Shown: piece by piece, positions 5,701 to 63,463 of the stretch
How the letters are laid out: each line of letters begins with the position of its first letter
How positions within the stretch are numbered: the stretch's first letter is position 1
Source: a virus
IMG/VR virus record: IMGVR_UViG_3300010278_000003
Length of the DNA: 64,000 nt
Reading direction: 5' to 3' (one strand)
The notes under the pieces: generated by a model
The model's database searches: none
The model's input: the letters and a program-made list of their open reading frames with translations, nothing else
Told to the model about the DNA's origin: nothing
Translations under genes and position numbers: made by a program

Positions 5701-8700
5701 TTCTCTATAACTTTAATTACAGCATTTTTAGCAGAATCGTATTTATCTCTTTTATCCTCAAGTAGTTGTTTACGAGCTTCCTTTATACCATTAGATGCAT
5801 CCATTAATTGCTTAATAAGCTTTTGAACTTTCTCAGATGTATTATCAAGTCCTTGTGCGTAAGCATCATTAAGCTCTTTTAATGTTGTAGTAATTTCCTC
5901 ACCAAAAAGCTTAATCTGATCTTCGGTATTATTTAATTCTTTAGCAACACTTATCTTAAACTCAATATCAGTGATTTTATCATCATATATCTGTTCTTTT
6001 AATGACTGTAAATCATCATTATATTGTTCAAGGGTATAATTATTATCTTGCCAAGTAACAGCCAAATCTTTATTGGCATCAGCCATTTCCTCAGTCTTGT
6101 TGATTAAATCTTCATAATAATGAATAAGCTCATTAGTATCTTCTTGGTCTTTACCTTTAAGTTCATTAAGATGTTCTAAATTACTAATATGAAGCTTGTC
6201 CGTATAAGGGTCATAACTAACATCAAAATTCTTTGCTTTTAACTCTGCAACATTTTTCTGAATTTCCTTATCTCTTGCTTCGTTTAATGCTTCGATTGCC
6301 TTTTGCTCTTCTTCCATTGCCGTAATGCGGTCTTTCATAAGAGCAATTTTTTCTTCATTTGTCTTAGCATTATCATATTTTTTGTCTATAGCTTCACGTT
6401 TAGCTTTCGCATCTTCATAGGCTTCGGTAAAGTTACGAAGTGCATCTATTTCTGCTTGATAAGCTTCGGTTTCAGAGCCGCCACCGCCGCCTCCGCCGCC
6501 AGAACCGGAAGAATTTCCAGAATCTTTTGAAGTATTAGATATAAGATTACCATTAATATTTCCAACACCCGTGGTAGCCGTTGTAGAACCAGAGGTTTTC
6601 TTAGTTGTTTTATTTGAGGTTGAAATATTAACCTTGCTTTTTAAACTTGATCCCATACTTCTAGCTATTTCAGAACTTGACATCCCCTCGTATTTAGTTC
6701 CCGCATATCTAACCTTGCTATTACCACCTAAAGAAAATAAAGGTAGATGACCGCCAGTAGCATTTATTTTTGAAGCAATATTATTCCATGTACTTTTTAA
6801 CGAATCAAAATTTCCACCTACACTAATAACAGCACTCGAATTGGAAATACTATCTATGGTATTGTTTGTTGCAGTTACAGCGCTTGATGTGTTAGCACCA
6901 ACTTTAACAGTAGGATTTGAATTATTAACTTTTGATTCGAACTTGGTTAATATATTTTCAGCTTGTTTTGGATCAGCCGTAAATGTTATTACACCATTTT
7001 GATCTGTTTTAACATAATCAAGTTGAGTTTCTACACCGTCAACATTTGCTGTAAAAACAACACTTCCATCTTGTTGCTTTACTGCTTCTATAGTTTGTTC
7101 AACACCGTCAACATTTGCTGTAAAAGTAATAACAGTTCCAGCAGCCATAATACTAATTTTGTTCATAAGAGACTGAAGACTGTCAGCATTATTAATTTTA
7201 GTATCTATAGTTAAAGTGTGAGGAGTTGAGAAAAACTCATTCCAATATTCTACAAAATCATCATCAGAAGCACTTGATATATCAATATTCTTTCCGTCAA
7301 GCCAATTATTAAACTCATCTAAAAGTTCAAGATACTCAGTTTGTTTTGCTTCAATCTTCTTCTGCATCTGCATTATTTCATCGTCACTTGCAGTTCCAGA
7401 AGTAACTCTTGATTGCATTTCGTCCGTTGCTTCGTCTATACCAGATTGAAGAGCAGAGACATAATCATTTGCTATTGTATCTATATTAGTTTGGTCTTCA
7501 AGCATTTTAATGGCTTGATCATTGTACGAGAGCAAAGAAGAATAATCCTCTTTATTTTCGTTACCAAACTTCATTTTTGTTTTTATTTTATCAATTTGAT
7601 CATATAACTGCTGTAAGTTATATTCAAATTTAATTGGAATGTCAAATCCTTCAGTTAAGGCTGACATGTCATCATTAAATCCTGCAACCTGCTTATCCCA
7701 ATTTTCAATTAATTTTCCGAGTTTTTCTTTTCTTGTGCCATCCTGAAGGTCATCATAAACATCTCTTAAAGAAGATATTTCATCTTTAATTTTCTCTATT
7801 GTTTGATATGTATCCTCTACATCATCAAACACAAAGCCATAATCCGACATTGACTTTAAAACCGCACTGACAACCTCAACACTTGTACCTAACTTGTCAG
7901 CTACTTCCTGAGTACTTTTAAAATGTGTTTTAATATTTCCAGTACTTTTGTCGATGTCCACAAGAGTAGGATCTACTTTTTTCAAATCATTCCAGAAGTT
8001 CCACATAGAAGCAGTTTGATCTTCTGAATTAAACCATCTTGATACTTTCTCGTAATTTTTCTTCCAAGCATCAGCATATGCATTTGCAGGAATGGTATAG
8101 GCAGAAGTATCTATTTTTTGAGGATTCATCCATTGTGCAACCGATTGAAAGTCATCAGTACCAATAAAACCACCATCAAATAATTTTTTTGCCTTTTCTA
8201 AATAATCAGATAAAGATGTCCAATCAACACTTGAATTTGCCGATTCAAAGGCGGTTTTTACCGATTCTAAAGTACCGCCTAACACGTTTGCTACATCTTC
8301 TCCAGCTTCTTTGGCTTTTTCAAGAGATTTACGGTACTCGTCAACTGCGTTCTTTGCGTCTTGATAGCTTTTTATTGTATCGTTATCAATGCCCATACTA
8401 ACAGTACGTAATTCATCTTCTGAAAGACTGTTAAAATATGCTTCATATTGAGATGTGTAAGTAACAGAACCTTTTTTGTCTGAAAAGAATTGTTTAATTC
8501 GATTCTTATAATCGTTAGTATCTATCTCACCAATTTTTATATTTACAGTTACAACATCGTTCTCAATTTTATTAGCCATATCAAGATAATCTTGATATAA
8601 TTGTTCCATCTTAGTCTTTTCTTCTTGATCATCGTCATAGACACCAGCATCAAGATACTTTTTAATCGTATCTGCATATTCAAGATATTCTTTCTCAGTT

Positions 8701-9517
8701 TCAAGAAGGGTAGAATTATAATCTTGAAGTTTTTGTTTGGACTTATCTATGTCGTTTTTATAAAGATTAGCAGCAAACGTATTACCTGCATCTGCCATTT
8801 CTTGGGCAGCTTTGGTATAAGTATCTAACTGTTTTTCTACTCTTTCGATATGAAACATAGTATTTCCATATTTTTGAGCACTTTTACCGACCTTGCTACT
8901 TCCAGATTTACTACTAATTACACCTTCGTTTAAAAGACCGCCTCTACCATACAGTTCGTTCTCGGCTAATTTCTTTTGTTCCTGCTCATAAATCTTTTGA
9001 TCAAGTTCAAGTCTTTGTTGTAAATAATCTAAACGAGATTGTTCCGCTTCAGTTAATCCACCTTCATCACGAAGAGCAAGAAGCTTTTTCTCTTCTTCTT
9101 CAAGAGATGATATTTCGGATGAAAGATTGTCAACTATCTCTTGCTGTTCTTCAAGAGTAACATTCAGTTTATCCCAAACCCACATACCTGCTTTAATAGC
9201 TAAATTAACTGCAAGCATAATACCTATGTTTTTAGCTGCATCTAATGCTGCTTTGCCAAATTTAGCGAATTTGTCGGATGAAGCACCAATAAATGAAGCA
9301 TATTGTTCTGCTACATCCTTAGAATAATCACAAGTATTAGTAAACTTTGTTAATTCACCATCTGCGAGTTCAAAATCTTTTGCAAATTCTAATATTTCAC
9401 CTTCATTATTAAAAATTTTTCCTTGTAAGGCTTCAAGAAAATTACTTTGATTTTCTGTCAGTTTTTTAAAGAATGAGCTAAATATTGTACTCCAACCATT
9501 TTCGCCATGATTGACAA
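2778..9517 (-). CDS. Tape measure protein, exon 2 (C-terminal ~2246 codons)
   Basis: The 2146-aa ORF frame is open 107 codons upstream of the called ATG (to 9539) and that ATG lacks an SD. Long coiled-coil protein. Joins exon 1 in frame at 9517. Confidence 0.85.
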
Positions 9518-9539
9518 CGTTGTTATAAAATGGTATATT
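9511..9539 (+). promoter_or_regulatory. sigma-A promoter (extended -10) for the antisense cargo genes, straddling the 3' splice site
   Basis: TTGACA 9511-9516, 17-nt spacer, TG at 9531-9532, TATATT 9534-9539; SD AGGAGG 9573-9578 before ATG 9586. Confidence 0.75.
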
Positions 9540-9585
9540 TTAGTTAATCACTTGAGTTAAATAACCTAAATTAGGAGGGAATATT

Positions 9586-10125
9586 ATGGATGATATCACA
9601 TACAAATTTGCACGTCATGGAAAAATATTTAAATGTCCACACTGCTACGAAACAGGTGGCAATTTAGAGGAATTTAGTAAAACTGCCTCTAAGTTAAATC
9701 CGAATCATAGTGAAAAATTAAAAGAATTCGCAAAAGGTTATTTAGGATTAAGTTTAGATCCACCATTTACAGATACCTGTCCGTATTGTGGAACTAAATT
9801 AATTGACACAGGAATCTCTTTTGATGATGCTATTACAATAAGAGATTTTAGCGATTTCAACAAAGACATATTTAATATGATGATTGATTTACATCAAAAA
9901 GATTTAATAGAATATACAGCTAAAATCAATATGATGAAAGCAAACATAGAAAAAACAAAGATGATTAAAAAAGAAATTGACACAACTCCCAAATGCCCCA
10001 AATGCGGTTCTACAGCTATCACTACAGGAGCGAGAGGTGCAAACTGGGCATGGGGATTTATAGGAGCAAGTCAAACGGTTAACAGATGTGGTAACTGTGG
10101 TTATACTTGGAAACCAAAGAAGTGA
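9586..10125 (+). CDS. Intron cargo: double zinc-ribbon protein
   Basis: Four CxxC pairs (CPHC, CPYC, CPKC, CGNC), a short hydrophobic GANWAWGFIG segment and a strong SD. Confidence 0.75.
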   Translation: MDDITYKFARHGKIFKCPHCYETGGNLEEFSKTASKLNPNHSEKLKEFAKGYLGLSLDPPFTDTCPYCGTKLIDTGISFDDAITIRDFSDFNKDIFNMMIDLHQKDLIEYTAKINMMKANIEKTKMIKKEIDTTPKCPKCGSTAITTGARGANWAWGFIGASQTVNRCGNCGYTWKPKK

Positions 10126-10166
10126 GAAGGGTGTAATACAAAACACATTAATCTATAAAAGGAGAT

Positions 10167-10535
10167 TTGGTTATGAAAAACACACAAAATATTGCATCTC
10201 TCATAGCTCGGCTTGAGTACGAGATTGGAAGAGAATGCTATAATCCAAATTCATATGATGGATATACGGGAGTAGAAGGTCGTGGATATAGATATCCAGT
10301 AAAAGTTTATCAAAACGAAAATATGAGAACATATCGTTATATGATATCAGAAATTTCTCCATCAGAAATTCATACAATGAAGTATGTGTTCGGATCTAAT
10401 CATTTATTTATTGGCAAGGGAATATATAATATTCTCAACACACTTGAAAGAAGATATGGTTTAGATTTTAACGAAATGGAAGAAAACTTAAGCAATAAAC
10501 CAAAAGATGATATTCCGACTACTCGTTTCATTTAA
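10167..10535 (+). CDS. Intron cargo: hypothetical protein
   Basis: 122 aa, SD AAGGAG. Confidence 0.7.
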   Translation: MVMKNTQNIASLIARLEYEIGRECYNPNSYDGYTGVEGRGYRYPVKVYQNENMRTYRYMISEISPSEIHTMKYVFGSNHLFIGKGIYNILNTLERRYGLDFNEMEENLSNKPKDDIPTTRFI

Positions 10536-10578
10536 ATAATGATAAAATATTCCTAACAAATATAAAGGAGAGACTATA

Positions 10579-10857
10579 ATGTATACAACAGATTTCAGCA
10601 TATTCACTCAAATGGTAAATATGGCGAAGCAGAAGAATTTAGATTATATTATTATGTATTCATATCACTCAATTAGTGGTGGCAAATATTCACATTCATA
10701 TTCTTTTGTATTATCAACAAATCTATTTACTGTTACCTTTAAAAAGAAATTTGAAGAAGGGAATGATAATGCTGTACGAGGATTTATTCAACATAATGAT
10801 TGTGTCAAACTTAATTGTGATATGATAATTGAAAAAGATTGTGTTGAATTACATTAA
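10579..10857 (+). CDS. Intron cargo: hypothetical protein
   Basis: 92 aa, SD AAGGAG; stop overlaps the stop of the convergent gene. Confidence 0.6.
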   Translation: MYTTDFSIFTQMVNMAKQKNLDYIIMYSYHSISGGKYSHSYSFVLSTNLFTVTFKKKFEEGNDNAVRGFIQHNDCVKLNCDMIIEKDCVELH

Positions 10858-11087
10858 AAATGTCTATCTTTTAATAATTCCAAAAGACGAATTTTTAAAT
10901 CGTATTCATCCCACTCAAGTTCAGAATACATCTTTAAGGCTTCACTAATTATGAATTCGTCAGATTCAGTTTCTTCCGAATGATTGAATCTGGCGAGTAG
11001 TTTCTGATATTCTACAATTTTATCTATATCAGGAAAAATTTCATTATGTGTTAATTTTTTTGATTGTGAATTTATTTTATCTATCAA
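10854..11087 (-). CDS. Intron cargo: hypothetical protein
   Basis: 77 aa, SD GAGGTG, TTG start. Confidence 0.55.
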   Translation of the reverse strand: MIDKINSQSKKLTHNEIFPDIDKIVEYQKLLARFNHSEETESDEFIISEALKMYSELEWDEYDLKIRLLELLKDRHF

Positions 11088-11141
11088 ATGATTTTCACCT
11101 CGATTTTATTATTATAAGTATTCATACAGGGAGGAATACAT

Positions 11142-11429
11142 ATGAAAAAATTATATTGTCCATTTACTAATGGTAGCTGTAATAACGATTGTATTATGAA
11201 TAATAATTGTTTTGAAGAAAATAATTCTCAAAATTGTATGTTACTTAAATCTGTCGAGTCAATTATATCTTTTGTTAACGGACTTTCGGTTGTAAATAAA
11301 GACACTGAAAAATACTTAAAAAGTATAAGTGACAATACCGGGGACGATCACTCATACTCCTTTGAAATTAACAACAAACTTGATTCGATTAAGAATCTTT
11401 TAGAGGAGATTATTCAGAACGAACAATAA
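11142..11429 (+). CDS. Intron cargo: Cys-rich N-terminus, coiled-coil hypothetical protein
   Basis: 95 aa, CPF...C...C...C...C pattern, SD GGAGG. Confidence 0.65.
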   Translation: MKKLYCPFTNGSCNNDCIMNNNCFEENNSQNCMLLKSVESIISFVNGLSVVNKDTEKYLKSISDNTGDDHSYSFEINNKLDSIKNLLEEIIQNEQ

Positions 11430-11622
11430 GATTCTTAATCTTATTTTCAACAATTCTAAGTAAACCAAAAGCCTGATTGTATGTTAAATTATTTGAGGTT
11501 ATTTCTGAAATTATTTTATCTGACAATGGGGAAATAACCTCTTTTTCAAAATTTTCGTTTTCAGTTTGTTTTTTAATTATTTCTTTAATACTTTCATTCA
11601 TTTCTTTAATATTTTCGTACAT
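11410..11622 (-). CDS. Intron cargo: hypothetical protein
   Basis: 70 aa, SD AAAGGA. Confidence 0.55.
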   Translation of the reverse strand: MYENIKEMNESIKEIIKKQTENENFEKEVISPLSDKIISEITSNNLTYNQAFGLLRIVENKIKNLIVRSE

Positions 11623-11736
11623 TTTATTTTTCCTTTCAATCCGTAGTTAAATATTTTTACTTAAAAATAACTCATACATAGTATTGCAGTACGTACCAAA
11701 GTGTGAGCCTAATATTTTAGAAAGAGTGATAAAATA

Positions 11737-11943
11737 ATGGGATTATTTACCGCTATTATAATTTTTATTATTTTAGCAATCGCCGCAGCAAGTCACGGCG
11801 ATTTTTCTGGTATGCAAATAATAGGAAAAATTGTAGGAGTTATAGCAATGATTGTTATAGTAGCTGTTCTACTAATGAATCCAGTTTTGTTGGTTGCTGC
11901 ACTTATAATTGTTGCTATAATAGCGTTAACCCATAAGAGCTAA
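11737..11943 (+). CDS. Intron cargo: small multi-pass membrane protein
   Basis: 68 aa, almost entirely hydrophobic, 2-3 likely TM segments. Confidence 0.65.
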   Translation: MGLFTAIIIFIILAIAAASHGDFSGMQIIGKIVGVIAMIVIVAVLLMNPVLLVAALIIVAIIALTHKS

Positions 11944-12134
11944 TGACAATAAAAAAGTGGGGCGATACCCACTTCTTTACACATGTCTATTAACAAACAG
12001 ACAATATTATTCCGTTTCGAATACTTTCGGATAATTTTTTCAGCATCTTCTTTCGATGACAAATTATATTCTTTTAAAATATCCGAATAATATGTGTCAC
12101 ATTTAATAACAAGTAACTTAATATAATCTTTCAT
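11940..12134 (-). CDS. Intron cargo: hypothetical protein
   Basis: 64 aa, SD AAGGGG, co-directional with the upstream HTH gene. Confidence 0.55.
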   Translation of the reverse strand: MKDYIKLLVIKCDTYYSDILKEYNLSSKEDAEKIIRKYSKRNNIVCLLIDMCKEVGIAPLFYCH

Positions 12135-12162
12135 AATTACACCCCTTATTGTGTATAATAAT

Positions 12163-12363
12163 TTAGTATGGGAAAATGTCTTCTATTCGTAAATTTAAAG
12201 CTTTGCAAATTTTAATAACAGTACTAAATCTTGGATCTGAATATCCATCTTCTATCAAACTGATACTTGTTTTATTTACTTTTGCTTTTCTTTCCAATTC
12301 ACGCAAAGATATTTTCCGTTCTTCTCTAATTCTTTTAAGATTGTTTTTCATATGCATCACCAA
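12163..12363 (-). CDS. Intron cargo: XRE/Cro-type HTH regulator
   Basis: LKRIREERKISLRELERKAKVNKTSISLIEDGYSDPRFSTVIKICKAL is a classic HTH_3 pattern. Confidence 0.85.
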   Translation of the reverse strand: MVMHMKNNLKRIREERKISLRELERKAKVNKTSISLIEDGYSDPRFSTVIKICKALNLRIEDIFPY

Positions 12364-12951
12364 TAATATGATGTGTTACATCTAAAAGAATTATTTATAC
12401 ATATATTACTACATACAATGGGTTATGTATTAGCCATATGGAAAAATTTTTAATTAATTTAACTTTCGACAAAATCATATTTTATTTTATAACCTTTTAT
12501 AACCTATAACATTCCCAAGTTATTATAGGCTTGTGTGATATGTACTAAGCAGGGCAGTAGAGTAATACTCTAAGTTCGTTTCCCTGTTCGCTTCTTGCAG
12601 CCTTTCGCCACAGTAACGGACTGTATGTTGCAATCTATAAAAATAGACCGTATCTTGTCAGCCTCTCGCACGATATAACATCTTGAAATCACACTTTCAA
12701 TTAACATTTATACCGTGTCGGAACTACCATTTTCGTATCAATAATCTATGATACTTAGTTGTGACACACCCACATGGAGCTTTTATTGCAGTGTCATCAA
12801 TACCTATAAATAGGCTTACGGCTTCCTCCGATATTCGACATATTTAGGATTTCTCCAAGGATTATGTCTACTTGATGAACGACCATCTTGTAGAACACCC
12901 ACTATTATGCATAGTAGGGGGTTTGTAACCATGACTTGTAACTATACGTTA

Positions 12952-15900
12952 GCCCATAACCTTTAGCACCAGCAACACCAGAAATAATTGTTCCTATACT
13001 GCCAAGTGTTCCAACTTTTTCTACAAGAAAATCTAAAGCTTCAATCAGCTTTGTCAGACCTTCTAATACAACCTTTATTGCATCACTATCAAGAAGTGAA
13101 TTTGACAAACCTTCAAAAGCAGCTTTTACTTCTTTTGTTTTTGCTTCAACGCCTTCTTCATATGCGCCAAATTTTTCCATTGCTGTACCAGAAGCATTAG
13201 CAGCAGTTTCAGCATATTTTAAAGCATTAGGATAGTTTTCGAAAAGAACGAGTAATTTTTCAGACTGAGCTGCACCTGCCATTGCAGTCACAATAGCTCT
13301 CTGTTCTACTGAAGTAAATGTATTCCATCTACTTGCAACTTCGTCAATTACATCACCAAAGTTTCTAAATTCATCCTTACTATCACGCAGTTTAATATTA
13401 AATTTCTTAAGAACTTTTTCTACATCTGATAAATCTTCACCGTCATCAGAAATGAATTTGCCAGCCTTAACATTACCCATACGTGAGAATATACGTTTAA
13501 AGGCATTACCGACAGAACTCATGCTATCCTGTGTTGTTTCACCTACAACAGCAGCATATCCCAATAACTGATCCATTGAAATACCCATTGTTCGTGCAGA
13601 GTTTGCAGTTTCTGCCATAGCTTCAGCAAGACCACCAAGAGATACAGCAACCTGAAGGTCAACCGCAGACATTTTATCTACAACATTCATGGCATCAGAA
13701 GCTTCAAGCTTATAACCTTTTAAGGCACTTGTAAGATACTGAGTTGATTCGGCAGAATCAAGTTGACCAACTTTAGACTGTACCATACTGGCTGTTATAA
13801 GATTATTAGTGTCTTCAAGCGAGTAACCCTGTCTTAACCAGCTATCGGCACTTTCCGCAACTTCTTTTGTAGTAGCACCTAAAGTTTTTGCCATACCATT
13901 ATAGGTTTTCATTAGCGAGTTAACATAATCTTCATTCTCACCAGAAGCTATCTGTAAGTTTACAACAGACTCGTTATATTCTTTCGCCGCATTATAAACC
14001 TCAGTAAATCCACGCTGAATATTTTGTAATGCGTTTGCACCAACAAAATATTGAGCTAAGTTTTTAAATGTGGTTTTTAACGTATCACCTAATGTTTTAG
14101 AATTATATCCTGCTGTTTTAACATCATTTGAGAAATTTCTAAATTCACCAGAAAGATCTTGAATATCCTTTCTTGCTTCTCTGATGGATTTTCCATCAAA
14201 ACTATCAGCAAAACCATTTTTAACCCGATCAGCCTGTTCTTTAATCATAATCAGTCTGTTATACATCTCATCAAACTGAGTTACTAATTTTTGAGCTTCG
14301 GGTTTACTTGATGCAAACAATTTTGTATTTGTAGCTTTATAAGCATTAAATTTGGACATTAAAGACTCTGTTTGTTTTATAATAAAATCAGTGTCAGTAA
14401 CATCTTTTTGGTCAGCTTTTGCTTGAGTTTGGGCTTGAGCAACTTGTCTACGTGCTGCTGCATTTTTTAAAACAGCTTCAGTATTACTATCAATTTCAGC
14501 CTTTTCTCTTGCAAAAGCCTCTGTATCAAAATTACCACTTGCTTTTGCATTAGCTAAAGTAGAAGCATATTGTTTTCTTAAAGCCTCAATATTTTCATTG
14601 TTAGCTTTTATTACAGGGGCGTTTTTGACAGGATCTTTTTGGAGAACTTCATTATCTTTTCTTAATTTTTTTATATTATTTAATAACTTTGTAAGCTTGG
14701 TTAGATAGTTTATATCATCTGATTTGTCACTATCTGTTGCGACAGTATCAGTTTCAACAACTTCTTTTTTTTGCTTTTCTACTTTTTTTAAAGCAACTTT
14801 AGTTTTTTCTGCAGAATTAGATGTAGCTTTACCGAAATTGTCTATGGCGTCCTGTGCTGATTTAAATGTTTGTGTTAAAGTTTTTGTTTCACCATTAATA
14901 TCAGATATCTTTTTATTAATTGTAACAAATTCATTGCTGTCAACACTAATAGTATATTCATCACCAAGATTTAAACTATTTTTAATTCGTTGAGCTGCAT
15001 CTAAAGTTTGTTGATATGTAAGAGCAGGGGAAGTTTCATGATCAAAATTAGCCAATTTTTCTTCCAATAGATTGATGTTTTCAATTATAGGTTTTAAAAT
15101 TTCATCAAAAATATTTCCATCTGCATCTATTTTTGCCGAAAAAGTTTTCCAAGCCCCATTAGCATCTTTTATTTTGGCTGTGACCTGCACAAGACCTTCT
15201 GCTAATCCATCAGTTATAAGTTTAGCATCAACAGAGTTACCTAAAATTATATTATCATTTTCAGTTAATTTCTTATTTGCCGCAGTTATATAATCATTAG
15301 AATTGGTGAAAAATTCATCTTCAGAAATTTTTTTATATTTAGAATATTTATTTTTTTTTGCCTTTTTGGGGTTTTTAAAATCTTCTGAAGATCCACCTAA
15401 ATTAGAATTACTATCATTAGATGACTCTTTAACTTGCTTATTTGCCTCGACAAATTCTTTCTTTGCATCGGCAGCTTCACGAGCAGACTTGGCAATCTGA
15501 TTCATTAACTCAGCTTCAAGTTTCAAAGGGTTTTCCGAACTATCAATAGAAGATTGTACTCCTTTATTGGCTGTTGCAAAATCTTTCTTTGCTTGAGCAG
15601 CATCATTAGTTGCTTTCTCCACATTCTCAATACCGTTTGTTTCAGATTTAATGTCAGTAGAAGAATCAGGAAATGCGTCTTTCTTTTGATTAGAAGCCGA
15701 TGAAATATTCGTTTTCTGAGGAGAAGTAAGATCGTTATTTCTAACATTCGCTAATTCAGTTTCAAGCTCTTTAACTTTGTTTGTAAGATTAATTATTTCT
15801 TCAACTGAAGTATTTACATTTAAACCATTCTTGAAAATATCCGGTAATGTACTTACTGCTGTCGAAATTTCTCCAAGCTTACTTACAATAGTGGAAAGTT

Positions 15901-16813
15901 GACCAATAACTTCAGACAAATCAGTTTTGCCAAAAATGTCATTTACAGCTTCAGTTCCGCCATTAGTACTTTTTTTTATTTCGTTTTGAACTTTCGTAAT
16001 TTGTGCTAATGCTGAAGAAGCTTGAGTCCAATAGCTTTTATCCGTACCTTCACGTATTATATCGTGTCCACCATACAATGATTTGGCTTCTTTTCTTGCG
16101 TTCTTGATAAAATCTATATAAGCTTGAAGTTTTTGCATAGAATTATCATACTGATTTATATCAAAATCAAAAAATTTATCAGTAAGTGATCCAGCCGCAC
16201 CTGACATTTTTATATGATTAAATAGATTCTGATAAGATTGCAAAGCACTTGCAATTTTTGCTTGTAATTTTCTATCTAAATCCCCATCTGTGCCAACATC
16301 TATATTCATATTAAATCCAAGATTTTGAGTTTTTGTACTTAATTGAGATATAGAATCACTAACTTGTTTAATTGTTGTAAGCAGGGGAGATAATTCGTTT
16401 CCATCTCCAACATCTGATATTACTTTTTTTATATCAGATAAATGTTTTTCAATGTTAGAAAAAAGCTCTATTGTTGATTTTAATTGCTTTTCATCAATTA
16501 AAGATTTTCCTATTCCCGTATTAATACCTTTACCCGATGCAAAATCTTTAATTATTTTCTGAAATTCTTTTAAATCTTTTGCAAACTGTTCTTTTCCGTC
16601 TGCTACAACTTTAATTTTATAATCAGTAGTAGAAAGTTTCTTTTGTACTTTGTTTAATTCTTTTGCAAGACTTGCATCCGATAAATCAAAGAAAATTTCT
16701 AATTTATTATTCTCCAAATCTCTTTGTGCAGAAGAAATTGCCTTAAGAGCTTGAACCGATACATCATTTTTATCTATAATAATACTCGCTACTAATGAAG
16801 CTACCTCAGCCAC
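12952..16813 (-). CDS. Tape measure protein, exon 1 (contains TP901-type TMP core)
   Basis: The segment AKTLGATTKEVAESADSWLRQG...VVDKMSAVD...GNAFKRIFSRM is typical of the TMP core. The unspliced frame stops at 12905, inside intron hairpin P2. Confidence 0.88.
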
Positions 16814-33205: not shown

Positions 33206-33276
33206 TAGGGCATAACGGACTCGAACCGATACTCACGGGATGAAAACCCATTGTCTTACCTTTTGACTAATGCCCT
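33206..33276 (-). tRNA. tRNA-Glu(UUC)
   Basis: Acceptor AGGGCAT/ATGCCCT, anticodon loop TT-TTC-AT, T loop TTCGAGT; one T-stem mismatch; no encoded CCA. Confidence 0.8.
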
Positions 33277-33280
33277 AAAA

Positions 33281-33355
33281 CGAATCGTATGAGACTTGAA
33301 CCCATGTTATTCTACCGTGACAGGGTAGTACCATAACCAACTAGGCAAACGATCC
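33281..33355 (-). tRNA. tRNA-Asp(GUC)
   Basis: Acceptor GGATCGT/ACGATTC, anticodon arm CTACC-CTGTCAC-GGTAG, T loop TTCAAGT. Confidence 0.85.
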
Positions 33356-39830: not shown

Positions 39831-39911
39831 TACAGCTAACCAGACTCGAACTGGTACGGAATATCCGGTGGATTTTAAGTCCACTGCGTCTACCAATTAC
39901 GCCATAGCTGT
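39831..39911 (-). tRNA. tRNA-Leu(UAA)
   Basis: Acceptor ACAGCTA/TAGCTGT, anticodon arm GTGGA-CTTAAAA-TCCAC, long variable arm CGGATATTCCG, T loop TTCGAGT. Confidence 0.92.
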
Positions 39912-44717: not shown

Positions 44718-44789
44718 CAGGGTGTACAGGATTCGAACCTGTGCATATAGGAGTCAAATTCCTAGGTCTTTCCGCTTGACGAACACCCT
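44718..44789 (-). tRNA. tRNA-Gln(UUG)
   Basis: Acceptor AGGGTGT/ACACCCT, anticodon arm TAGGA-ATTTGAC-TCCTA, T loop TTCGAAT. Confidence 0.9.
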
Positions 44790-54990: not shown

Positions 54991-55245
54991 TTATTCCGTT
55001 TTCATTCCATCATCTGGAATATATCCTTCTTTTATACATTTTGCCAAACATTGTAAAATAAAATACTGTCTGGATTTTATACCATTTTTTTCTATATAGC
55101 TGTCCAGATCTGCTGCATCAGCTTTTTTCATCCTAAATGTAAAAACTTGGTAAGTTTTATCATTATATCTTTTATTGGAAATTTTTTTCTTTTCTGATAA
55201 ACTCATACAATCACCATCTTGTAATATATAATTTGCACAAAACAT
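54991..55245 (-). CDS. Ribbon-helix-helix-like DNA-binding protein (start probably MSLSEK ~55206)
   Basis: SNKRYNDKTYQVFTFRMKKADAADL...SRQYFI pattern. Confidence 0.65.
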   Translation of the reverse strand: MFCANYILQDGDCMSLSEKKKISNKRYNDKTYQVFTFRMKKADAADLDSYIEKNGIKSRQYFILQCLAKCIKEGYIPDDGMKTE

Positions 55246-55293: not shown

Positions 55294-55411
55294 TTGACAC
55301 AACACGTATGCGGTGCTATACTTTAGCCATAGTCAATCAAATGATTGACAAATAAAAATCATCAAAAAATGTGATTAACCTATTGACATTTACAATTTTA
55401 TGTGATATGCT
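55294..55411 (+). promoter_or_regulatory. Tandem strong sigma-A promoters for the rightward arm
   Basis: TTGACA(55294)-17-TATACT(55317) and TTGACA(55383)-17-TATGCT(55406), both with TG extension. Confidence 0.75.
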
Positions 55412-62467: not shown

Positions 62468-63463
62468 ATGAAAGGAAATGGTATCATGGAAAAGAATAGA
62501 TATGCAACGAAGAAAAAAGGCAAGACGGAAGTTTATCCATTTTGGAACATGAAAGACATAAAGAATGTTGTTGAATGGTTTGAGAAAAATAATGAATGGG
62601 ACGGATATTTGATTACATTATTAGAACTACTTCTTGGTAGACGAATTGGTGATACTGTGATGATGAAATGGTCTGATCTGTATTATGAGAACGGTAAATG
62701 TAAAAATGAAATTAATACCATAGAGGAACAGAAAACAGGTAAAACAACAAACATTCCTATAAGCAATATGGTTTGGGAAGCAGTTGATAATTATTTAAGT
62801 CATACTAAAATCAATCCTCTTGAACATTATAATGAGTATATATTTGATTACGAGCCTAAAACAGAATGGATAAACAGAAATACTTTATCAATATATAGCA
62901 AAAACAGTATTGATGCTTGGTGCAGGGCGTTAAATAAAGATCTTTCTGATAAGAGAAAAGGGGAAATATTCAATGATTTTCATAAACAGAAAATGTATTC
63001 TTCGTTAGGGGATTATCTTTATTATGAAGTCGAATATAGTGATATAATCAAATGGCAAACTGATGATTATAGGAGAAAGCTAAAAAAGGCTGTTAAAGCT
63101 TCTGGCATAGATTATCCTGTAAGTACGCACAGTTTAAGAAAATCATGGGGATATTGGATACATAAAACGCATCCATTTGATCCAGATTGTTTATTATCCT
63201 TACAGAAAATGCTCAATCATAGTGACTTACAAACAACAATGAACTATATTGGATTAACAGAAGAGAAGAATCGTCAGTTAATCAATGATCATGGTGAATT
63301 TATTCATAATGTTTTAGCTGGTAAGGGAGATGAAATAGTTAAAAATATGCCTGTTATATCATTAAAATCAGATGACTTAGGGAAGATTATAAGGATGTTG
63401 ACTGATGATGTAGACAAGTACCAAGCAGCAATTAATATGGCAAATGAGCTAAGAGTGTCTTAA
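62468..63463 (+). CDS. Tyrosine recombinase (catalytic domain, no N-terminal binding domain)
   Basis: GRRIGD, EQKTGK, HSLRK, LNHS, TMNY. Confidence 0.9.
   Translation: MKGNGIMEKNRYATKKKGKTEVYPFWNMKDIKNVVEWFEKNNEWDGYLITLLELLLGRRIGDTVMMKWSDLYYENGKCKNEINTIEEQKTGKTTNIPISNMVWEAVDNYLSHTKINPLEHYNEYIFDYEPKTEWINRNTLSIYSKNSIDAWCRALNKDLSDKRKGEIFNDFHKQKMYSSLGDYLYYEVEYSDIIKWQTDDYRRKLKKAVKASGIDYPVSTHSLRKSWGYWIHKTHPFDPDCLLSLQKMLNHSDLQTTMNYIGLTEEKNRQLINDHGEFIHNVLAGKGDEIVKNMPVISLKSDDLGKIIRMLTDDVDKYQAAINMANELRVS

Follow-up and report, generated by a model that had tools for sequence, protein, structure and literature searches.

A probable sigma-70-type promoter across the 3′ splice junction of a group I-type intron in a phage tape-measure gene, facing an antisense zinc-ribbon gene

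The window, as the whole stretch of DNA analysed here is called, comprises 64,000 nucleotides (nt) of the IMG/VR virus record IMGVR_UViG_3300010278_000003 and comes from a large gut phage. On its minus strand the tail tape-measure gene is split by an intron of group I type, and a 29-bp stretch at the end of this intron is at the same time the start of exon 2, the 3′ end of the intron and, on the opposite strand, a host-type promoter sequence facing a gene for a zinc-ribbon protein that the intron carries. We give a probability of about 0.74 to the reading that a working promoter straddles a real splice site here, and the layout recurs in dozens of related phages. The features on which the reading depends are listed below; P1 and P10 are the pairings of the internal guide sequence of the intron with exon 1 and exon 2, respectively.

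9511–9516, plus strand: −35 hexamer TTGACA, the complement of nt 2–7 of exon 2 (TGTCAA, Val-Asn codons) and of the exon strand of P10
9517–9533, plus strand: promoter spacer acgttgttataaaatgg, 17 nt, read from the sequence; its length is invariant and its sequence free in 11 lineages
9531–9532, plus strand: TG of the extended −10, separated from the hexamer by a single base; motif TGgTATATT
9534–9539, plus strand: −10 hexamer TATATT, within the 3′ tail of the intron; positions 1, 2 and 6 invariant among relatives
9546–9547, plus strand: predicted transcription start, placed from the geometry of the −10
9573–9579, plus strand: Shine-Dalgarno (SD) sequence AGGAGGG of the zinc-ribbon open reading frame (ORF)
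9586–10125, plus strand: zinc-ribbon ORF of 179 amino acids (aa) with four Cys pairs, ATG at 9586; the conserved antisense gene of the intron family
9518–12951, minus strand: group I-type intron of 3,434 nt that splits the tape-measure gene, starting with TAACG and ending with the G at 9518
12952–16813, minus strand: tape-measure exon 1 with the PF10145 domain; coding ends ...GAKGYG plus the first base of the next codon
2778–9517, minus strand: tape-measure exon 2; the conserved protein begins (L)VNHGENGW

The hexamer TTGACA at 9511–9516, the interval of 17 nt and the motif TGnTATATT with its −10 at 9534–9539, all named in a preliminary description of the region, were read directly in the sequence. 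So was the overlap that it had pointed out, in which bases that are exon, P10 strand and 3′ splice signal for one strand make up an extended −10 promoter of the sigma-70/sigma-A type on the other. Promoters of this type have their hexamers 17 ± 1 nt apart and a TGn upstream of the −10, and both are found at 9511–9539. The −35 bases fall in the codons GTC AAT and in P10 (splice site between 9518 and 9517). Within the spacer, position 9517 complements nt 1 of exon 2, 9518 complements the terminal G of the intron and 9519–9533 are the last 15 intron nt. Between 8500 and 13500 the TTGACA/TATATT site is the top promoter-like site, with 11 of 12 positions matched plus the TG, and the 64-kb window has three copies of the pattern TTGACA-N14-TGnTAnnnT, where shuffles give an expectation of 0.15. 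The two other sites (55294–55322 and 55383–55411, plus strand) lie in a divergent gap with minus-strand ORFs ending at 55245 on one side and plus-strand genes on the other, and are likely early or immunity-region promoters. It thus seems that the phage has such sites at positions where a host-type promoter would be expected.

The promoter was compared among 17 loci, which correspond to 12 distinct sequences and to 11 lineages with less than 85% identity over the surrounding 100 nt. On the antisense strand, all 17 loci carried TTTACA (TTGACA in the window and in locus L001), exactly 17 nt, TGn and TAnnnT, the −10 being TATACT, TAAAAT, TAATAT, TATAAT, TATATT or TAACAT, and in all 17 the SD sequence and the ATG of an ORF of 142–179 aa followed 25–51 nt after the −10. 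Conservation of TTGACA at homologous exon 2 starts had been proposed as a check in the preliminary description, and all 11 lineages were found to have either this hexamer or TTTACA, a 5/6 match, with 17 nt, TGn and TAnnnT behind it. The invariant columns in the 11 lineages were the −35 (as TTTACA/TTGACA), the TG and −10 positions 1, 2 and 6. The mean information content was 0.59 in the first 14 spacer columns, 2.16 in the TG and 1.47 in −10 positions 1, 2 and 6, and the 12 columns past the −10 carried 0.32 bits. Changes of length affected the stretch from the −10 to the closing helix of the intron, with 34–40 nt from the helix to the terminal G, and never the spacer. L007 (TTTACA) and L008 (TTGCAA), from a second intron subfamily whose exon sequences differ, likewise have the −35 in exon 2, 17 nt, and TGATATAAT in the intron. 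The fixed spacing, the free spacer and the constancy of T1, A2, T6 and TG are best read as the product of selection on an extended −10 promoter of the sigma-70 type and not on an RNA helix.

The spacer had been thought to contain the terminal G as well as a clamp helix. The G is indeed there, but the clamp pairing (GGTTATAAAA... with ...TTTTATAAC beside AAC-G, AT-rich) is confined to the window and the 95%-identical L001, and in the other lineages compared no conserved pairing was found for the 15 intron nt of the spacer. The conserved closing helix sits 11–17 nt beyond the −10, not in the spacer.

A promoter-like pattern at such a place might be a non-functional by-product, the −35 being kept by P10 and coding, the TG and TAnnnT by a role in the RNA (for instance P9.0 or a tertiary contact), and the zinc-ribbon gene being transcribed from elsewhere. 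Splicing and coding do hold the −35 in place, as the preliminary description had it, and the 14-bp P10 and the Val-Asn codons explain this hexamer fully; the region is also AT-rich, with a modest enrichment of promoter-like hits (37 vs 26.6 in shuffles, 8500–13500). These constraints leave aside the remaining columns, of which exactly −10 T1, A2, T6 and the TG are invariant, at a fixed 17 nt from the −35 and with free sequence between, and for the intron tail no conserved partner was found in the core. In L063, which has a longer 3′ tail, the exon TTTACA is 28 nt from the −10, but a second, intron-internal TTTACA lies exactly 17 nt from TGATAAAAT and restores the spacing. As a null control, 235 chance occurrences of the exon-2 14-mer in unrelated genomes were used, and of these 17 had the TG, 5 had TAnnnT and 2 had both; the scan of viral and genome collections with the 14-mer had given 240 loci, 3 of them true sites and the rest almost all chance. 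Zinc-ribbon genes on viral contigs, in other types of tape-measure protein and next to different exons, had a 17-nt-spaced TG-extended promoter in 32 of 41 distinct scorable loci, and the background in random windows of the same loci was 33/784 (4%). A by-product is therefore an unlikely explanation of the pattern.

The promoter belongs to the zinc-ribbon gene of the intron itself and not to captured cargo. In every inspected interrupted locus this ORF is antisense and adjoins the 3′ splice site, and minimal introns of 1.0–1.3 kb contain the ribozyme and the zinc-ribbon ORF only. The preliminary description had counted it into a cargo unit of three plus-strand genes; the second and third genes are variable cargo, but the first is conserved. 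Across the family the ORF is 137–179 aa long and has an N-terminal CxxC...CxxC, a helical middle (...IEY..K.SQF.TQ...) and a C-terminal CPxCxS...CxxC..W. The family has 1,781 homologues at E ≤ 1e-5. Sixty-six zinc-ribbon loci on viral contigs (43 distinct) were examined, and about 33 of the 43 face a long ORF (≥ 850 aa) whose frame opens 0–80 nt from the ATG and often begins with ...(V/I/F)xNYD. Tape-measure homology on the opposite strand was detectable in 19 of the 66 (before collapsing duplicates). Some contigs hold several zinc-ribbon paralogues (P0036, P0037 and P0048 on one of 33.7 kb, P0065 and P0105 on one of 89 kb), and there may be several such introns per phage.

In domain and structure searches with the zinc-ribbon protein, Pfam gave sub-threshold zinc-ribbon matches only, among them one to the zinc-ribbon domain of TnpB (E 6.5e-4; score 20.3 bits, cut-off 26.3). 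The PHROGs families matched, 3845 and 2546, are of unknown function, and one HNH PHROGs family was matched by 1 of 13 members (E 0.002). PDB sequence and Foldseek searches returned generic zinc ribbons only, none at E ≤ 0.001, and the ESM Atlas generic zinc ribbons or viral hypotheticals only; the AlphaFold model has a mean predicted local distance difference test (pLDDT) value of 74.9. A role as homing endonuclease was considered, but no LAGLIDADG, GIY-YIG, HNH, His-Cys box or PD-(D/E)xK motif or fold was found by Pfam, PHROGs, PDB or Foldseek. A part in the mobility or maintenance of the intron is the leading guess for the protein. In its full form, the proposal would make it the factor by which a large and so far undescribed family of tape-measure introns moves or is maintained, and an intron-encoded nuclease or DNA- or RNA-binding protein of a new kind, with a promoter that is completed only at the cognate target and is off under convergent late transcription; we put this forward tentatively and regard it as rather doubtful. 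If true, the gene of the intron would be on only at the correct site and off when the tape-measure pre-mRNA needs splicing.

A functional promoter might also serve mainly to make an antisense RNA controlling the intron or the tape-measure pre-mRNA, with the zinc-ribbon protein as a secondary product; as long as late transcription does not override it, such an RNA could block splicing or trigger cleavage by RNase III. Its sequence would be the complement of the looped-out part of the intron and, at the 5′ end, of the closing-helix strand at 9550–9556, and transcription convergent with the late operon is unavoidable. The ORF, however, is under constraint at the protein level, with 11 invariant columns in alignment A3 (8 Cys, Gly, Pro, Ser, Trp) at 24–42% identity across 13 sequences, and the number of homologues and the presence of SD and ATG at 25–51 nt in every copy also argue for a protein product. 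This makes a mainly regulatory RNA decidedly improbable.

The promoter reading presupposes that the tape-measure gene is joined by splicing, for which the following features of the intron are relevant.

12430–12951, minus strand: structured RNA core, the first ~520 nt of the intron; the boundary at 12430 is approximate
12919–12933, minus strand: internal guide sequence, with ACCC (12922–12919) for P1 and CATGGTTACAA (12933–12923) for P10
12514–12520, minus strand: 5′ strand of the closing helix, ACTTGGG
9550–9556, minus strand: 3′ strand of the closing helix, CTCAAGT; on the plus strand, 5′ untranslated region of the zinc-ribbon mRNA
12952 joined to 9517, minus strand: predicted ligated junction, ...GGGC followed by TTGTCAAT

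The annotated ORF of exon 1 (12905–16813) continues into the intron and stops at 12905–12907. The frame of exon 2 is open from 9539 and homology reaches the frame opening, and the first start codon is at 9218, so that 107 conserved exon 2 codons precede it, with no ribosome-binding site; neither in the window nor in the relatives was a start codon or ribosome-binding site of exon 2 found. An uninterrupted homologue, P0015 (2,550 aa, locus L006), is collinear with both halves, its linker of ~103 residues accounts for the missing stretch, and the genes downstream follow in the same order. Twenty-odd related loci have an insertion of 1.0–5.4 kb at the position of the split. In these relatives exon 1 ends ...G-A-K/N-G-x-G and then stops within 0–20 codons, with unrelated tails, and the conserved protein of exon 2 starts (V)VN(Y/H)D.

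The guide sequence pairs with both exon ends. In the window, ACCC pairs with exon 1 GGGC in P1, with C.A at the cleavage site, and CATGGTTACAA pairs with exon 2 in P10 (4+7 bp with one bulged C, −9.5 kcal/mol). The guide of the relatives, GTCATAGTTTACAA followed by GCCC, pairs with exon 2 TTGTAAACTATGAC in a P10 of 14–15 contiguous bp and with exon 1 GGGT in P1, where six full-length relatives have 4/4 pairs with U.G. P1 covaries in the second subfamily (CATGAGT/GCTCATG vs CTTGGGT/GCTCAAG). The base ahead of exon 2 is G in all 17 loci, and placing the junction by phase and P10 gives a G in L004, L007, L008 and L009 as well. In three subfamilies exon 1 and exon 2 have matching codon phases (both phase 1 here, both phase 0 in the L004/L007/L009 subfamily), and the predicted ligated protein reads ...GAKGYG-L-VNHGENGW.... 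An intron-less allele with the exact homing site, GGNT followed by TTGTAAAC, was found in none of the loci compared.

The core is highly conserved across relatives, and a structure of group I style was drawn on alignment A2 in the order P3, P4, P5, P6, P7, P3′, P8, J8/7, P7′ and P9. The drawing has 84 pairs, with 97.2% of cells paired, and 18 pairs change on both sides, compared with 1–4 in slid controls. Covariation was seen in P2, P4, P8 and P9. P3 and P7 (G[A]GGC/GUCC), the latter being the helix that would form the bulged-A guanosine pocket, show either no variation or changes on a single side. Because P7 is invariant, the assignment of the core rests on its topology and on the covariation in P2, P4, P8 and P9. 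The closing helix is kept in all relatives, with covarying strands (CTTGGAA/TTCCAAG; CCCAAG in L001), and is strand-swapped in the L004 type (CTTCCAAA/TTTGGAAG). It loops out ~2.95 kb of genes, after which 32 nt remain to the terminal G at 9518. A group II intron was rejected, as the intron has no GUGYG start and no domain V, and Rfam gave no group II match in the window and two compact relatives. Although the core is unmatched by a curated model, we regard it as very probable that the intron is real and of group I type; self-splicing with a guanosine cofactor is predicted.

Several further pairings and insertions were seen in and around the intron. The P6 loop GUGUGAU (12688–12694, minus strand) is complementary to an invariant AUCACAC after P9.1 (12533–12539, minus strand); both are almost invariant and may form a long-range tertiary pairing. 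Nucleotides −5 to −11 of exon 1 (GGTTATG; GGATTAG or GGAGCAG in relatives) pair with an intron segment, with several two-sided changes (A2 columns 9–15 with 141–147; in the window ~12956–12962 with ~12862–12869, minus strand), and this second contact to the exon, lying upstream of P1, is not usual among group I introns. A second copy of the 9-mer GGGTTAACG, the 5′ splice-site motif of the relatives, lies in the cargo at 11929–11940 (minus strand), at the end of an ORF at 11737–11943; it is common to L001 and probably due to chance. In L021 (3100–6000) the exon 1 tail and the intron are found in tandem with a period of 1,581 nt and 300 nt at 100% identity, and the two copies hold different zinc-ribbon genes (150 and 158 aa); either the insertion is truly double or two strains were assembled into a chimera. 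In L003 (4588–6793) another interruption, within the PF10145 domain of the same tape-measure gene and with a sense-strand DUF4379 ORF of 427 aa, is probably another intron at a different site.

That the tape measure is instead made as two proteins, with 9540–12904 as an ordinary accessory-gene island and the promoter a divergent intergenic one, is highly improbable: gene callers annotate two ORFs at every locus, Rfam detects no intron and an ATG or TTG occurs close to where the frame opens in some distant relatives, but no start codon or ribosome-binding site stands ahead of the 107 conserved codons, the exon 1 ORFs, whose tails are unrelated, run to a stop 0–20 codons past a shared GAK-G-x-G motif, the core shows RNA structure and covariation, and guide pairing, phases, the G before every exon 2 and the one-piece homologue all agree with splicing.

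Some observations weigh against a working promoter across a real splice site. The Rfam group I model (RF00028), run at gathering and permissive thresholds, gave zero matches in the window and two compact relatives even at E ≤ 10. At the cleavage site the window and L001 have C.A, and the six other rows of alignment A2 have the U.G of group I introns; a C.A wobble can share the shape of U.G, so the C.A does not exclude activity. The −35 is inseparable from P10 and coding, and its conservation alone is no proof of selection on a promoter. In L004 and L009 the best promoter is wholly intronic (TTCCAA-17-TGnTATAAT, overlapping the closing helix), and straddling of the splice site is thus common, not universal. 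Use of the site by RNA polymerase and the point of initiation are predictions from the DNA sequence, and no intrinsic terminator was predicted after 10857 to set the extent of the transcript. Complementarity of the antisense transcript to the intron loop in the late pre-mRNA would be a cost, and this suggests that the antisense and late transcripts are expressed at different times.

The working of the element may be pictured as follows. A mobile intron of group I type would split the tail tape-measure gene on the minus (late) strand; its first ~520 nt would form the ribozyme, the long-range helix (12514–12520 with 9550–9556) would loop out the genes, the last 32 nt would lead to the terminal G at 9518, and an 11-bp P10 would align exon 2. 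On the opposite strand, a sigma-A/sigma-70 extended −10 promoter would straddle the 3′ splice junction, taking its −10 and TG from the last 21 nt of the intron and its −35 from the first codons of exon 2. The −35 would be held by three constraints, since its bases are also Val-Asn codons and the P10 exon strand, and since it comes from the target gene, the full promoter would exist only with the intron in its cognate site. Transcription would start near 9546 and encode the zinc-ribbon protein and probably also two captured genes, before late transcription or in the prophage, and convergent late transcription would shut the promoter off.

A tyrosine integrase is encoded at 62468–63463 (plus strand; PF00589, E 1.8e-17) and suggests a temperate phage or the end of a prophage. 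L245 and L270, close relatives of related introns, are in Lachnospiraceae genome assemblies, that of L245 from an isolate; a temperate lifestyle and a Clostridia host are therefore plausible. The preliminary description had the genes expressed, probably in the lysogen, in the manner of a moron. A promoter sequence is present and the window encodes an integrase, but the terminator that a moron would also have is not predicted after 10857; a host-type promoter would fit early lytic expression as well as expression in the prophage. In deposited phage genomes no DNA match of the region or of the intron core was found, the matches being distant tape-measure protein matches only, and a first scan of viral contigs with a single protein as query gave none. 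Four tRNA genes are found among the minus-strand genes of the window (33206–33355, 39831–39911, 44718–44789, minus strand).

Behind the zinc-ribbon gene, the intron of the window has two further genes on the plus strand.

10173–10535, plus strand: second ORF, 120 aa, with its own SD sequence; variable cargo
10579–10857, plus strand: third ORF, 92 aa, with its own SD sequence; variable cargo

No homologues of these two were found in any related intron. The window and L001 are 97–99% identical over exon 1 and core, the XRE block, and the zinc-ribbon gene and junction, but the cassettes (10133–11709 in the window, 8311–9086 in L001) are wholly different, starting right after the zinc-ribbon stop. 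By their position, the two ORFs would probably be co-transcribed with the zinc-ribbon gene. The idea that any gene captured here gets a ready-made promoter fails for the constant zinc-ribbon gene and is plausible for the second and third ORFs only. Just past the ribozyme core, in sense orientation, lie an XRE-type helix-turn-helix gene (12163–12363, minus strand) and a 64-aa ORF (11940–12134, minus strand); the pair recurs at 45–60% identity in the larger introns L001, L003 and L007–L010 and is absent from minimal introns. L001 has ~785 extra nt (6777–7561, with a 194-aa ORF) between core and XRE block.

If the promoter works as proposed, one short stretch of DNA is under three constraints, namely a protein code, an RNA-RNA pairing for splicing and recognition as a promoter on the opposite strand, and the dependence on the junction of element and target suggests how a mobile intron might sense that it is correctly inserted. 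The variable slot behind the zinc-ribbon gene shows how accessory genes could sit within an essential late gene and yet be expressed independently of it. An unannotated protein family with ~1,800 homologues detected gains a consistent genomic context and therefore a testable role. For annotation, a tape-measure gene of a large Firmicute phage that looks 'split', its halves separated by an antisense zinc-ribbon ORF, should be taken to contain an intron.

Group I introns are usually described as a ribozyme with a homing-endonuclease gene on the sense strand. The td, nrdB and sunY introns of phage T4 have homing-endonuclease ORFs with intronic promoters of their own, and the intron described here is like them in bearing a gene with its own promoter, independent of the pre-mRNA of the host gene. 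In T4 the ORF is in sense orientation and looped out of the ribozyme and the promoter is wholly intronic, whereas here the gene is antisense and the promoter is divided between intron (−10) and exon (−35). IStrons of Clostridioides have a 5′ group I ribozyme and IS200/605 genes ahead of the 3′ splice site. A ribozyme packed at the 5′ end, a large gene segment before a short 3′ tail and Clostridia hosts are common to both, but TnpA and TnpB are absent here except for the sub-threshold TnpB zinc-ribbon trace, and the conserved gene is antisense and of 137–179 aa. Identity with an IStron was rejected, no ORF of the intron matching a transposase. Hybrid promoters of insertion sequences (IS) have one hexamer in the end of the element and the other in flanking DNA, and usually point outward with the −35 in the IS. 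They too are complete only at the junction of mobile element and target, but here the target gives the −35, the element gives the −10, and transcription runs inward into the gene of the element.

Group I introns are known from the tape-measure genes of prophages in the Bacillus cereus group, where they are termed IVS1–3 (Tourasse and Kolsto 2008, PMC2504315). Shared with these are the self-splicing intron in a prophage tape-measure gene and P1 and P10 pairings that are adapted to the insertion site and define the splice sites. A search of that paper for the corresponding terms returned no antisense ORF, promoter or zinc protein, and the family described here differs further by its length of 1.0–5.4 kb, its antisense zinc-ribbon gene, its lack of a recognisable homing endonuclease and its P10 of 11–15 bp. 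Antisense homing-endonuclease genes are reported from nuclear ribosomal DNA (rDNA) group I introns of fungi and protists (PMC9548176), so that there, as here, a protein gene lies opposite the ribozyme strand and needs separate transcription. Those introns are eukaryotic with His-Cys box endonucleases, some of whose genes have spliceosomal introns, in contrast to the intron of the window, which has no known nuclease motif and a promoter of sigma-70 type across the splice site.

Tape-measure group I introns, intron ORFs transcribed from promoters of their own, endonuclease genes antisense to eukaryotic nuclear group I introns and IS junction promoters are thus known already. The literature searched yielded no account of an antisense promoter that spans the splice site of a bacterial or phage intron, and what is new in comparison with these systems is a bacterial-type promoter sequence that is split across a group I 3′ splice junction, is conserved in many lineages and would drive a conserved antisense gene unlike known endonucleases.

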